NCBI GenBank assembly: GCA_052085045.1
Contig: JBQDFB010000003.1
Span: 10,391-74,390, forward strand
Direction of reading: 5' to 3'
DNA length: 64,000 bases
Source: Microbacteriaceae bacterium
GTDB taxonomy: Bacteria > Actinomycetota > Actinomycetes > Actinomycetales > Microbacteriaceae
Positions within the stretch are counted from its first letter, which is position 1; each line of letters starts with the position of its first letter. Position numbers and translations under genes: made by a program. Under the pieces are notes generated by a model. It saw only the letters and a program-made list of their open reading frames with translations, had not been told where the DNA came from and did not search any database. This document shows positions 38,948 through 43,548 of this stretch, one piece after another.

Positions 38948-41041
38948 GTGACCAACGCACCCATCGCCGCCCGCCGCTCACACGTCCGCACGCACCACGG
39001 AGACGTCTTCGACGACCCATACGAGTGGCTGCGCGAGAAGGAATCGCCCGACGTCGTCGCGCATCTCGAGGCGGAGAACGCGCACGCCGACGAGGCGACA
39101 GCACACCTCGAGGGTCTGCGCGAACAGCTGTTCCAGGAGATCAAGGGCCGCGTGCAGGAGACCGACCTCTCGGTGCCGTCGCGGCGGGGCGACTGGTGGT
39201 ACTACAGCCGGAGCGAAGAGGGTGCGCAGTACGGCATCCACTGCCGGGCCGCAGCCGCGCCCGGCGACTGGACTCCCCCGACGCTCACACCGGGCATTCC
39301 GGTGCCCGGCGAGGAGATCCTGCTGGACGGCAACGCCGAAGCCGAGGGTCACGAGTTCTTCTCCCTCGGCGCGTTCGATGTGTCCAATGACGCCACGAAG
39401 CTGCTCTGGGCGCCGGACTACGAAGGTGACGAGCTCTACACGATCCGTGTGCGCGATCTGGTGACGGGTGAGACCCTCGCCGAGGAGATCCCGCAGACGG
39501 GGGGAGGATTCTTCACCCCTGATGGCGCGGCGATCGTCTACACGACCCGCGATGAGGCCTGGCGTCCCGACACCCTGTGGCTGCACCGGCTCGGCACGGA
39601 GGTCGCCGACGATGTGAAGCTGTTCCATGAGCCCGATGAGCGGTTCTGGCTGGGCGCTGGCCTCACCCGCAGCCGCCGATACCTCGTGATCGGCGTCGGT
39701 TCGAGCATCACCACCGAGGAGTACCTCGTCGACCTGCGCCGTGAGATCACCGCTGAGCCGCAACTGATCTGGCCGCGGGTCGAGGGCGTCGAGTACGAGA
39801 TCGACCACGCCGTCGTCGAGGGCGAGGACCGCCTGCTGATCCTGCACAATCAGGATGCTCTCGATTTCGAGCTCGTCTCTGTCGCAGCATCCGACCCTCA
39901 GGGCGAGCGGCACGTGATCATGCCGCACGAGGCCGGGCGGCGGATTCTGGGCGTGGACTGCTTCCGCGATTTCGCCGTCGTCGGGTATCGCAGCGAAGGA
40001 CTGGAGCGGATCGGACTGCTCGACTACTCCTCGGATGCCGTCGAGGAGCTCACCTTCGACGAGCCGCTGTTCTCGGCGGGACCGGCCGGCAACCCCGAGT
40101 GGCACGCGCCGTTCCTGCGCCTGTCGTACACCTCGTTCGTGACGCCGGCGACCGTCTACGACCTCGATCTTGCGACCCGCGAGCTCGTGCTGCGCAAGCA
40201 GCAACCGGTGCTCGGCGGGTACGAGGCATCCGAATACGCGCAGGAGCGCCGGTGGGCCGAAGCATCCGACGGCACCGCCGTGCCGATCTCGCTGGTGTGG
40301 AAGAAGTCGTTCGGTGCGCCGGGCGGAGACGCGCGCCCCCTGCATCTGTACGGGTACGGCTCGTACGAGCACTCCATCGACCCCGGGTTCTCGGTCGCGC
40401 GGCTGTCCGAGCTCGACCGCGGCGTCGTCTTCGCGGTCGCGCACGTTCGCGGTGGCGGCGAGATGGGCCGGAGCTGGTACGAGGACGGCAAGCTGCGCAA
40501 TAAGCGCAACAGCTTCACGGACTTCGTCGCGTGCGCCGAGCATCTCATCGACACCGGCGTGACCTCACCCGAGCGGATGGTCGCCGAAGGCGGCAGCGCG
40601 GGCGGGCTGCTGATGGGTGCAGTCGCGAACCTCGCTCCGACCAGGTTCGCCGGCATCCTGGCATCCGTCCCGTTCGTCGACGCACTCACGTCGATCCTCG
40701 ACCCGTCGCTGCCGCTCACCGTCATCGAGTGGGACGAGTGGGGCAACCCGCTGCACGACCCCGAGGTCTACGAGTACATGAAGTCGTACACGCCGTACGA
40801 GAACGTGCAGCCAGGCGGCGCCTACCCGCGCATCCTCGCCATGACGTCGATCAACGACACGCGTGTGCTTTATGTGGAGCCCGCGAAGTGGGTCGCGGCG
40901 CTCCGGCACGCCGGCGCGAAGGACGTGCTGCTCAAGTGCGAGATGGCGGCTGGTCACGGCGGCGTGAGCGGACGCTACAACGCCTGGCGTGAGCGCTGCT
41001 TCGAGCTCGCCTGGATGCTGGACACCCTCGGCCTCGCCTGA
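38948..41041 (+). CDS. ptrB: Oligopeptidase B (S9A)
   Basis: DPYEWLR, YGYGSYE, HVRGGGEMG, GGSAGG, EWDEWGNP, NDTRV, GHGG. Confidence 0.95.
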   Translation: MTNAPIAARRSHVRTHHGDVFDDPYEWLREKESPDVVAHLEAENAHADEATAHLEGLREQLFQEIKGRVQETDLSVPSRRGDWWYYSRSEEGAQYGIHCRAAAAPGDWTPPTLTPGIPVPGEEILLDGNAEAEGHEFFSLGAFDVSNDATKLLWAPDYEGDELYTIRVRDLVTGETLAEEIPQTGGGFFTPDGAAIVYTTRDEAWRPDTLWLHRLGTEVADDVKLFHEPDERFWLGAGLTRSRRYLVIGVGSSITTEEYLVDLRREITAEPQLIWPRVEGVEYEIDHAVVEGEDRLLILHNQDALDFELVSVAASDPQGERHVIMPHEAGRRILGVDCFRDFAVVGYRSEGLERIGLLDYSSDAVEELTFDEPLFSAGPAGNPEWHAPFLRLSYTSFVTPATVYDLDLATRELVLRKQQPVLGGYEASEYAQERRWAEASDGTAVPISLVWKKSFGAPGGDARPLHLYGYGSYEHSIDPGFSVARLSELDRGVVFAVAHVRGGGEMGRSWYEDGKLRNKRNSFTDFVACAEHLIDTGVTSPERMVAEGGSAGGLLMGAVANLAPTRFAGILASVPFVDALTSILDPSLPLTVIEWDEWGNPLHDPEVYEYMKSYTPYENVQPGGAYPRILAMTSINDTRVLYVEPAKWVAALRHAGAKDVLLKCEMAAGHGGVSGRYNAWRERCFELAWMLDTLGLA

Positions 41042-41108: not shown

Positions 41109-41225
41109 GCATGTCTGGGTTGTTGCGGGTCAACGACGCCGGGACTCGCCGTTTCCCTGACACCCCCTGTGGGATGTCTGGGTTGTGGCCGGTATTCCGA
41201 CCGTGCACCCGCAGCTTCCCAGACA
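41109..41225. repeat. Left array: two 63-bp-period palindromic units
   Basis: Arms at 41112-41130/41144-41162 and 41175-41193/41207-41225, consensus TGTCnGGG-N4-nGCGGGT, 13-nt loops, 12-nt linker. Confidence 0.85.
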
Positions 41226-41321
41226 GGCACTCGCTCTGCACAACACAGCGACGGCGCCAGTTGTCCACATCTCGCGGATCTGAGGGCTCCGGGCGGCCGT
41301 TGATCAGGCTTTGATAGCCGG

Positions 41322-42293
41322 ATGACTCGACGCAGATCTCTCCCGCTTGAACTGTGCAACGGGCCTTTCACCGTCTCGGCGGCACGAGAACACGGCGTGT
41401 CTGCGTCGCGTCTTCGTGCCAAAGACCTCGAGTCGCCCACGCGTGGGGTACGTTCGCTCGCCGGACCGGCTGCCGAACCGGTGGATTTCGAGAACGAGAC
41501 GTCGACGCAGCGTTTGACTCGCCTGCGCGAGGACATGTGCGAACGGGCACGAGCGTTCGCCCCTGCGCTGACGCCCGCCCAGTTCTTCAGTCACGACACC
41601 GGGCTCGCGCTGATCGGAGCGCCACTGCCGTACTCGACGAACACGCAGCTCGACCTGCACGTGTCCGTGCGGCGGCCAGCGCCGCAGCCCGAGCGCAAGG
41701 GCGTGACCGCGCACCGACTTCAGACACGTGTGGCGGCGCGATGGACGACAAAAGATCTGCCGATCGAGCAACCGGCTCGGATGTGGCGGCAGGTCGCCGC
41801 CACCTGGAGTCTGGATGACCTGATCGCCGCCGGAGATTTCCTCGTGCACCCGCGCAAGGGACTGATGACCATCGACGATCTGTGGGCCGAAGTCCATGAC
41901 GCCGGAGACGTGCGCGGCATGCTCCGACGCGCGCTCCTCGAGATTCGGGAGGGTGCGGAGAGCCCGAGGGAGACTGCCCTCCGACTGGCCATCACGCGCG
42001 CGGGTCTGCCCCACCCGGAACTCAACTGGAACCTGCATGACGACGCCGGCAGGTTCATCGCGCGGCTCGACATCGCCTATCCGCGGTATCGCGTTGCAGC
42101 GGAGTACGACGGTCGCCAGCATGCAGAGGAGGTCCAGTTCGCCAAGGATGCTGATCGCTGGGACGACATCCGCACGCACGACTGGACCCTGGTGCGTGTG
42201 CTCAGCCATCACCTGCATCCCGACCCTCAGCCGGCGATCGACAAGGTCGCGCAGGCGCTCATCGCCGCAGGTTGGCGGCCGGGGCGTCGATGA
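41322..42293 (+). CDS. AbiEi-like N-terminus plus DUF559/Vsr-like endonuclease domain
   Basis: FFSHDTGLALIGAPLP; ESPRETALRL..GLPHPELN..RLDIAYP..VAAEYDGRQH..D..R..WTLVRV. Confidence 0.85.
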   Translation: MTRRRSLPLELCNGPFTVSAAREHGVSASRLRAKDLESPTRGVRSLAGPAAEPVDFENETSTQRLTRLREDMCERARAFAPALTPAQFFSHDTGLALIGAPLPYSTNTQLDLHVSVRRPAPQPERKGVTAHRLQTRVAARWTTKDLPIEQPARMWRQVAATWSLDDLIAAGDFLVHPRKGLMTIDDLWAEVHDAGDVRGMLRRALLEIREGAESPRETALRLAITRAGLPHPELNWNLHDDAGRFIARLDIAYPRYRVAAEYDGRQHAEEVQFAKDADRWDDIRTHDWTLVRVLSHHLHPDPQPAIDKVAQALIAAGWRPGRR

Positions 42294-42411
42294 CATGTCG
42301 GAGAAACTGCGGGTCGCGGCATCCGCAACCGTCACCTATCCCGACACGCTCCGGAGCGTGTCGGGAAGAGGCGGGTGCGACGTCGGAACACCCGCAACAA
42401 CCCCGACATGC
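42294..42411. repeat. Right array: inverted counterpart of the left array
   Basis: Arms at 42296-42314/42328-42346 and 42359-42376/42390-42408, 13-nt loops, 12-nt palindromic linker CGCTCCGGAGCG. Confidence 0.85.
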
Positions 42412-42519
42412 CGCGGTCGGGCAAGTAGGCGCGGCGGACGCGCCGCGCCGCGGCAGACAGGACGCGCCCGGGCAGGCGCGGGCAAACAGGAGGGGCCCGG
42501 GCAGGCCCGACCGGGCGGA

Positions 42520-43548
42520 TCAGCCGAAGAGGGCGGCGGCCTCGTCGTAGCGGTAGCGGGGCACGGTGTTGAGCTCGCCGAGGGCCTCTTCGAACTCGAC
42601 GCGCACGATGTCGGTGCCCTTCATGGCGACCATCTGTCCCCAGGCGCCTTCGACGATGGCGTCTGCGGCGTGCAGGCCGAGCCGCGTGGCCAGCACTCGG
42701 TCGAAGGCCGACGGCGACCCGCCGCGCTGAATGTGGCCGAGGATCGTCGCCCGCGTCTCAATGCCCGTGATGCGCTCGATCTCAGGCGCGAGCTGATCAC
42801 CGATGCCTCCCAGCCGTGGGCGGTTGAAGGCGTCGAGGCCCTTATCGCTGTACGCCTCGTCCATACCCTCAAGAGTGAAGCCCTCCGACACGACGACGAG
42901 CGGCGCACGACCTCGTTCGTGAGCGCTGGCGACCTGTGCCGCGATCTCGTCGATCGACATCGACACCTCAGGGATGCAGATGACGTGGGCGCCGGCGGCC
43001 ATTCCGGCGTGCAGGGCGATCCAGCCGACGTGCCGACCCATGACTTCGGCGACCATGCACCGCTGATGGGAGTCGCCGGTGGTGCGCAGGCGGTCCATCG
43101 CGTCGGTGGCGATGTTGACGGCGGTGTCGAAGCCGAAGGAGTAGTCCGTGGCGCGCAGGTCGTTGTCGATCGTCTTCGGCACGCCGAGCACGTTCAGTCC
43201 GTCCTTCGACAGTCGATCGGCTGCGGCGAGAGTGCCCTCCCCACCGATCGCGATGATGCCGTCGATCTTGTGCCCGTACAGCGTCTTGGCGATGTTCTCC
43301 GCACCGCCGCGCTCGCCCTCGTACGGATTCGTGCGGCTCGTGCCGAGGATGGTTCCGCCGATCTTCGACAGGCCCTTGACCTCGTGGCGGGTGAGCGGCA
43401 TGAAGTCACCCTCGACGACGCCCCGCCAGCCATCGCGGATGCCGACGAACTCAAAGTCGTACGACGTGGTGCCCTTGAGCACGACGCCGCGGATCACCGC
43501 GTTGAGGCCGGGGCAGTCGCCGCCGCTGGTGAGGATGCCGATCTTCAT
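42520..43548 (-). CDS. pfkA: 6-phosphofructokinase
   Basis: TSGGDCPGLN, GGTILG, PKTIDND, EVMGR, LGHIQRGG. Confidence 0.96.
   Translation of the reverse strand: MKIGILTSGGDCPGLNAVIRGVVLKGTTSYDFEFVGIRDGWRGVVEGDFMPLTRHEVKGLSKIGGTILGTSRTNPYEGERGGAENIAKTLYGHKIDGIIAIGGEGTLAAADRLSKDGLNVLGVPKTIDNDLRATDYSFGFDTAVNIATDAMDRLRTTGDSHQRCMVAEVMGRHVGWIALHAGMAAGAHVICIPEVSMSIDEIAAQVASAHERGRAPLVVVSEGFTLEGMDEAYSDKGLDAFNRPRLGGIGDQLAPEIERITGIETRATILGHIQRGGSPSAFDRVLATRLGLHAADAIVEGAWGQMVAMKGTDIVRVEFEEALGELNTVPRYRYDEAAALFG

Follow-up and report, generated by a model that had tools for sequence, protein, structure and literature searches.

A predicted AbiEi-Vsr-like fusion gene framed by palindromic arrays, and gene-less relatives of these arrays, in Microbacterium

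The array-framed P0001 gene

The DNA analysed here, a stretch of 64,000 nt from a Microbacterium genome that is called the window throughout, contains between a ptrB-like gene and pfkA a single gene, encoding the protein P0001, with a palindromic array on either side of it (Table 1). Two units of about 115 bp frame the gene, each composed of four alternating arms of about 19 nt, with gaps of 13 nt within the pairs and a period of 63 bp. The arm pattern TGTCNGGGNNNNNGCGGGT, searched with at most one mismatch, gave six matches in the window against 0.23 expected, and none of 100 shuffles reached six. This bore out the four arms per flank, the 13-nt gaps and the 63-bp period reported in a first-pass annotation of the same DNA. 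The left array lies 70 nt past the ptrB stop codon, with its end 96 nt 5' of the P0001 start codon, and is kept at the orthologous loci of three other genomes (G407, G193 and G154). The right array starts 1 nt past the TGA stop codon of P0001, directly after it as had been stated, and the two neighbouring genes, identified by Pfam as the annotation had named them, are convergent around the cassette.

The two arrays had also been described as mirror images. This held for the outer arms, which form an inverted repeat of 22 nt (95% complementary), and did not hold for the inner arms, the order being A-B'-A-B' on the left and B-(degenerate)-B-A' on the right. Of the right-hand arms, the second carries 3 mismatches, and the third, of 18 nt, has a 1-nt deletion relative to the G407 orthologue. 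Both arrays folded far better as single strands than shuffled sequences did (z values in Table 1). In the best single-strand fold (41109-41228 and 42293-42411), arms 1 and 4 pair with each other, as do arms 2 and 3, so that a single long nested hairpin forms and not two adjacent ones, and the whole 115-bp unit is palindromic about its linker.

Rfam yielded only a weak, sub-threshold match for the arrays (P37, 22.7 bits against 50), and a sigma-70 consensus scan from the left array to the P0001 start codon found no promoter. A terminator-like hairpin of its own is present at pfkA, so the right array is not simply the pfkA terminator. In addition, a 29-bp tandem duplication overlaps this hairpin; in two other metagenome runs the contigs are 28 nt shorter here, which indicates that the copy number varies in nature.

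Table 1. Features of the P0001 locus in window coordinates
Feature	Position	Strand	Basis or detail
ptrB-like gene (prolyl oligopeptidase family S9), left neighbour	38948..41041	+	Pfam Peptidase_S9_N, E 4.7e-95; Peptidase_S9, E 2e-62
Left four-arm array	41109..41228	.	arm pattern, repeat search, DNA fold (z -4.4)
Arms of left array	41112-41130 (+), 41144-41162 (-), 41175-41193 (+), 41207-41225 (-)		gaps of 13, 12 and 13 nt
Putative leader/promoter region	41229..41321	+	motifs seen by eye upstream of 8 orthologues
Leader motifs common to array-framed orthologues	CTGCACA 41236-41242; GTTGTCCAC 41260-41268; ATGG..GG directly 5' of ATG		
P0001 gene	41322..42293	+	323 aa; predicted AbiEi-type module (winged helix-turn-helix plus C-terminal domain) fused to Vsr-like nuclease domain
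Right four-arm array	42294..42411	.	arm pattern, repeat search, DNA fold (z -6.3)
Arms of right array	42296-42314 (+), 42328-42346 (-, degenerate), 42359-42376 (+, 18 nt), 42390-42408 (-)		
29-bp tandem duplication, outside the array family	42452..42509	.	overlaps terminator-like pfkA hairpin (42493-42508, minus strand)
pfkA (phosphofructokinase), right neighbour, convergent	42520..43548	-	Pfam PFK, E 1.6e-103

Genes and arrays across Microbacterium

The genome to which the window belongs (G000; 2.39 Mb in 149 contigs, 67% G+C, 80% complete) was scanned for further array copies, as the first-pass annotation had proposed. The scan gave 11 units, each about 115 bp long and built of four arms in the same way, and nine of these are gene-less, with no adjoining DUF559-like gene. 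The arrays are not private to the P0001 gene and are members of a dispersed family. All but one of the nine gene-less (solo) units lie 8-70 nt past a stop codon or overlap one, several of them between convergent genes. In each arm, five variable bases separate the conserved blocks TGTCnGGG and GCGGGT, and the arm starts with (c)RTGTC or CGTC. Array copies were also seen at contig ends (C27:144 in G000, C97 and C27 in G407); several draft contigs end at or within arrays, so that array counts in draft genomes are lower bounds.

Of 401 Microbacterium genomes, 9 contained the arm hairpin pattern. At least three hairpins were present in G000 and six others, and all seven of these genomes hold a homologue that has an array on either side, arranged in the same way. 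The homologues in the six other genomes are 57-92% identical to P0001; their upstream array ends 97-130 nt 5' of the start codon (about 180 nt in G234) and their downstream array starts 2-31 nt past the stop codon (2-12 nt except in G234). Of the seven framed genes, four have ptrB and pfkA as neighbours, two have katG and a DUF58 gene, and one has Aldedh (aldehyde dehydrogenase) and Ldh_2 genes. In the 24 motif-free congeners searched, the best homologue was 51% identical to P0001. The related loci found, roughly 170, were all in Microbacterium; arm blocks of the GGG, CAG and CCCAC types occur in the family.

Other family members are associated with palindromes of their own. In G000, all three members are framed in this way, and the families of the two paralogues, both outside the window, also have solo copies. 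Three hairpins with arms of the GGTCGCGAATCTCGCCGCT type frame the paralogue at C17:21138-22538 (36% identical to P0001, beside a DUF58 gene), and at least 10 other contigs have probable solo copies of them; a short tandem GGCATCCGTACGGCCC-like repeat lies directly upstream of this gene. The paralogue at C15:22535-23705 (29% identical) is framed by AAGGAGGAAAGTGCCGGT-type hairpins, with solo copies on C71 (two loci) and C38. Furthermore, G082, which appears to be M. esteraromaticum, has a T-type cassette between katG and DUF58 and a second gene between ptrB and pfkA; the arrays around this second gene are of the GGTCAC type and identical in geometry, and this type has about six solo loci. In the same genome, two small unrelated genes of 194 and 200 aa lie between a pair of T-type arrays that are separated by 1.3 kb (L031, G082:C1:144501-146002). 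Each of these arrays lies between convergent gene ends, and two arrays at such a distance therefore need not enclose a nuclease gene.

A survey of 77 species gave the same picture. A hairpin (19-13-19, with at least 14 of 19 bases complementary) preceded the gene in 55 species and followed it in 41, both positions being occupied in 34; among 154 control windows taken inside the gene, 6 had one. Clades of the protein tree share arm sequences, and the expectation that homologues would have clade-own flanking palindromes proved correct. The family is large, most Microbacterium species having one to several members, each with its own putatively readable site. The locus-2 slot is occupied by different family members in different species, and no C17-type palindrome remnants were found beside the T-type cassette at locus 2 of G082 and G329. 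No Y1 transposase (PF01797) or RAYT was found in five repeat-bearing genomes (G000, G407, G082, G329 and G193), while control genomes were positive, in agreement with the proposal of a non-HUH enzyme.

Several kinds of rearrangement were seen. In the 77 species, the family gene is present at ptrB-pfkA in most, in either orientation, which indicates that it has been inverted as a block. The empty ptrB-pfkA site anticipated in relatives was found in G329 (Microbacterium sp. M), where a spacer of 138 bp lacks the gene and keeps one GGTCAC-type hairpin. When this site was aligned with G082, the junction fell in an arm and left a partial arm, so the empty site looks like the result of a deletion between arms. 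The GGTCAC-type hairpins of G329, present at three loci (L064 at G329:C1:1513500-1518000, C1:3835254 and C1:3850598) with no cognate gene, are on this comparison orphan repeats left after gene loss. Moreover, G000 and G407 differ in one array by precisely one unit of 63 bp, and where G154 has an array together with about 176 bp of additional DNA, G000 has an empty spacer of 23 nt. No target-site duplication was present at the cassette ends or at this filled/empty pair, as the annotation had noted for the cassette. Two G407 arrays whose flanks are missing from the incomplete G000 assembly were not scored for presence or absence.

Most solo arrays are orthologous among G000, G407, G193 and G154 despite a flank identity of about 85%, and are therefore old. 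When orthologous arrays were compared between species, the conserved arm blocks differed at 9.8% of positions in solo arrays and at 9.2% in arrays adjoining the gene, whereas loops, linkers and the variable positions of the arms differed at 24-37% (Fisher p 1e-14 and 1e-7; the blocks were defined from the family consensus, and the comparisons, with one reference in common, are not independent). In gene-less copies too, the loops thus change three times faster than the arm blocks, which shows that solo arrays are not decaying relics. Taken as a whole, these comparisons show that the gene, its framing arrays and the solo arrays co-evolve and rearrange at the arms.

The annotation had further held that the spacing is fixed while the loops drift. 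The 13-nt gaps, the 63-bp period and the faster change of the loops relative to the arm blocks agreed with this. The loops also contain words that are not random. The words GCATCC or GGATGC stand in or beside 11 of 87 T-family loops, against about 1 by chance (an estimate; related species inflate the counts), and the 13-nt gaps of the window, for example 41194-41206 and 42315-42327, are likewise not random in sequence. Across many families, ATTCC or GGAAT is about seven-fold enriched over 174 flanking hairpins (30 against 4.2 expected, kinship again inflating the counts). The conserved nuclease domain may read such recurring words as a feature common to the families.

The stretch of the window was present in 19 food or food-fermentation metagenome runs from 9 studies, and no RNA run was among the listed holders. 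In contigs of four further runs, the only joints other than the intact cassette were short, repeat-related and elsewhere, and the contigs break at the right array.

Protein model and likeness to an AbiEi operator

The predicted structure of P0001 (pLDDT 91.4) was compared domain by domain with known structures. Residues 3-209 of the model match the whole AbiEi antitoxin 6y8q_A (Z 10.8, 174 residues aligned), and the model also matches 1zel_B (Z 6.4). For residues 214-318, the best match of the model is the catalytic domain of I-Bth0305I (3r3p; Z 12.8, rmsd 2.4), together with the Neisseria endonuclease-like protein NGO0050 (3hrl; Z 11.6) and E. coli Vsr (1cw0; Z 9.9). No transposase fold was found in P0001 by model comparison, and Foldseek with the whole model gave no match at E <= 0.001. 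The fold of the model agrees with the AbiEi-like N-terminus and Vsr/DUF559 nuclease suggested earlier; on this model, P0001 is a whole AbiEi-type DNA-binding module fused to a Vsr-like nuclease.

Across 28 homologues, the most distant of them 29% identical, residues E217, R221, E261, G264, H267 and D276 are invariant, and at least 90% of the sequences have D250. In the test against the Pfam models PF18741 and PF04480, P0001 scored 25.1 bits for MTES_1575 (cut-off 38.2) and 16.8 bits for DUF559 (cut-off 20.6), both below the gathering score; MTES_1575 was matched at E <= 0.01 by 24 of the 28 homologues. The PADLOC match of P0001 to AbiEi was weak (E 1.8e-4). No AbiEii (DUF1814) toxin gene lies beside P0001, the right array being followed by convergent pfkA with no second gene. 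Relative to the G407 orthologues, the dN/dS (nonsynonymous to synonymous rate ratio) was 0.16 for the P0001 gene, 0.08 for ptrB and 0.04 for pfkA, and accordingly the P0001 gene is under purifying selection yet evolves faster than its neighbours.

The array geometry can be compared with that of a characterized AbiEi operator. In the operator of Rv2827c, the AbiEi homologue of M. tuberculosis, four inverted repeats of 23 bp form two pairs; the members of a pair are 13 bp apart, and 4 bp separate the pairs. Gel shifts gave four shifted species, each of the four repeats being bound by one monomer (Beck et al., PMC7319586). The period is equal in both systems, 23+13+23+4 = 63 bp in Rv2827c and 19+13+19+12 = 63 bp here. 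Since a conserved c-R precedes TGTC, the true arms here are probably longer and the true linker shorter. In a hand count of the G000 hairpins, the variable position 5 was complementary between paired arms in only about 6 of 19, which points to the half-site and not the hairpin as the conserved feature and favours double-stranded recognition with one protomer per arm. The arms fit AbiEi-type double-stranded binding sites better than hairpin substrates. Complementarity at the variable positions was also counted over 87 hairpins and was set aside as evidence, being confounded by genome-specific arm variants.

The likeness to the AbiEi/Rv2827c systems (PMC7319586, PMC3985639) lies in the two-domain fold (6y8q) and in four inverted repeats with a 13-bp gap in pairs and a 63-bp period upstream of the own gene. 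There are also differences. AbiE has an AbiEii partner, whereas P0001 has a fused Vsr-like nuclease instead; the P0001 system adds a second array past the stop codon and dispersed gene-less arrays; and its upstream array lies 96-211 nt from the start codon, while the Rv2827c repeats overlap the promoter.

Interpretation and related systems

We lean, by a modest degree, towards a matched protein-and-site system, in which the P0001 gene is framed by two copies of its own array and about nine gene-less copies lie elsewhere. That the arrays are the putative cognate sites of the enclosed protein is well supported by the comparisons above. Each arm of about 19-23 bp would be a double-stranded half-site for one protomer, four per array, as fold, geometry and co-variation suggest, and the upstream array, by analogy, would act as an autoregulatory operator. 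The tethered nuclease domain, with its conserved putative catalytic residues, could nick or cut in or beside the bound arrays. Host recombination between arms would then repair the breaks, giving gain or loss of 63-bp units and inversion of the cassette; the same repair might also delete the gene and leave one hairpin, place the cassette at new loci and maintain the arms of solo arrays. The array and cassette events themselves were observed across genomes; we infer their connection with the nuclease, as we do cleavage at the arrays and propagation of repeats by it.

The first-pass annotation had proposed a selfish element of the type of repetitive extragenic palindromes (REP). The matched gene and dispersed repeats agreed with this proposal, but the low copy number, orthologous positions, mostly vertical inheritance at ptrB-pfkA and constraint on the arms did not. 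Few copies, long-standing orthologous sites and largely vertical transmission speak against an aggressive mobile element. They fit better with a partnership of the REP/RAYT or NTS/Ssn kind that has long been resident, or has been domesticated, than with an element that is actively invading.

Several points weigh against the matched-system interpretation. Solo loci number only about 5-10 per genome and are mostly orthologous across species, so any active propagation must be infrequent, and a nuclease alone cannot join DNA, so that spread would depend on host repair. The constraint on the arm blocks could stem from a host-level function or from gene conversion instead of the nuclease, and the species comparisons behind it are not independent. 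The upstream array also ends 96 nt 5' of the start codon, whereas the Rv2827c repeats overlap the promoter, and the scan located no promoter. In addition, the contigs of the four further metagenome runs carried an intact cassette and no junction skipping it, although contigs are blind to rare events.

The main rival explanation is that P0001 is a self-repressing single-chain AbiE-like module whose nuclease acts as an effector or toxin against other DNA, such as phage or incoming DNA, and never on the arrays. The upstream array would be its operator, and the solo arrays would be old footprints of the cassette or decoy/titration sites. The AbiEi fold, the weak PADLOC match and an operator geometry identical to that of Rv2827c are in keeping with this, and so are the gene loss in G329, which can evidently leave a solo hairpin, the low copy number and the mostly vertical inheritance. 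However, it leaves unexplained why a cognate array stands directly past the stop codon in nearly all members and why solo arm blocks are as conserved as those beside the gene. Moreover, 8 of 9 solo arrays are just past stop codons and not in promoters, and no AbiEii-type toxin gene adjoins, the gene standing alone between ptrB and pfkA. We regard this explanation as rather unlikely, if a serious one. The homing-type alternative, in which the nuclease cuts gene-less palindromes and repair from the gene copy, with the two arrays as homology, inserts the gene, would make the solo arrays targets and not products. It draws on the match of the nuclease domain to a homing endonuclease catalytic domain (3r3p, Z 12.8), the same cassette type at three loci, the varied occupants of the locus-2 slot and the cognate hairpin kept at the empty site of G329. 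Yet a single T-type gene is present per genome despite 5-10 solo sites, the partial arm beside the G329 hairpin looks like a deletion and not an unfilled target, and homology of 19-50 bp is short for recombinational repair; this alternative appears improbable.

The arrays could finally be ordinary host elements, such as terminators or RNA elements, or miniature inverted-repeat transposable elements (MITEs) of an unrelated transposase, with the adjacency to the gene incidental. Their position just downstream of genes, the strong fold potential and the 21/22-nt terminal inverted repeat, as in insertion sequences and MITEs, are what such elements would have. But the same framing with clade-specific sequences recurs in dozens of species and three contexts, no target-site duplication was seen, and neither an Rfam family match nor a Y1 transposase nor a transposase fold was found in the respective searches. 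The terminator-like hairpin of pfkA itself, and the low complementarity at position 5 (about 6 of 19 G000 hairpins), by which the hairpin is not the conserved feature, also speak against it. Such an origin is very improbable.

The matched protein-and-site system that we prefer can be set beside known repeat systems. In the REP/REPIN-RAYT systems of Proteobacteria (PMC3116915, PMC3337134, PMC3733652), a single-copy gene is likewise flanked by inverted copies of its own palindrome, gene-less copies are extragenic and mostly after genes, the repeats are clade-own and inheritance is mostly vertical. In contrast, RAYT is an HUH/Y1 transposase of the IS200/IS605 type, while P0001 appears AbiEi plus Vsr-like and Y1 was not found in the five genomes. 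REPs carry a GTAG tag, whereas the arms here lack GTAG and start with (c)RTGTC or CGTC; REPs number in the hundreds, against about ten P0001-type units (11 in G000); and the P0001 units have four arms in a fixed geometry, resembling double-stranded protein-binding sites. The NTS/SRM-Ssn systems of GIY-YIG single-strand nucleases (PMC11893778) also have a nuclease gene between its own hairpin repeats (NTS-ssnA-NTS), homologue-specific repeat variants, dispersed repeats and no transposase. Their enzyme is a single small GIY-YIG domain that cuts single-stranded DNA at the hairpin repeat flanking its gene, unlike the Vsr-like PD-(D/E)xK nuclease with a large two-domain DNA-binding module predicted here. 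The homing endonuclease I-Bth0305I (EDxHD) and E. coli Vsr share the nuclease fold and the motif E-x-D-G-x-x-H, but P0001 is outside introns and phages and is predicted to be targeted by its fused AbiEi module. Overall, the logic resembles that of REP/RAYT and NTS/Ssn, with a different enzyme and a low copy number.

No publication describing this protein-and-repeat partnership was found, and the papers on DUF559 that were searched gave no link to repeats. A survey of tagged palindromes leaves Actinobacteria unmentioned and describes CGTC-tagged repeats as having no dedicated enzyme. Tentatively, and with more doubt than confidence, AbiEi-Vsr fusions could be a third independent enzyme class, after RAYT and Ssn, partnered with its own dispersed palindromes. 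The AbiEi module would read half-sites of about 23 bp, and nuclease breaks together with repair would create, homogenise and relocate the arrays and the cassette without a transposase. If so, this partnership would explain a class of actinobacterial extragenic palindromes and would offer long-site nucleases in a natural series, with specificities that vary together with DNA sites that can be read. If the pairing is real, a protein partner could be named for actinobacterial extragenic palindromes where RAYT is absent, and the arrangement of repeats with a dedicated nuclease would have arisen again with a PD-(D/E)xK enzyme. As each family member appears to have its own site, protein-DNA specificity may be mappable from natural co-variation, and genomes with two or three orthogonal systems, such as G000 and M. 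esteraromaticum, would provide built-in controls.

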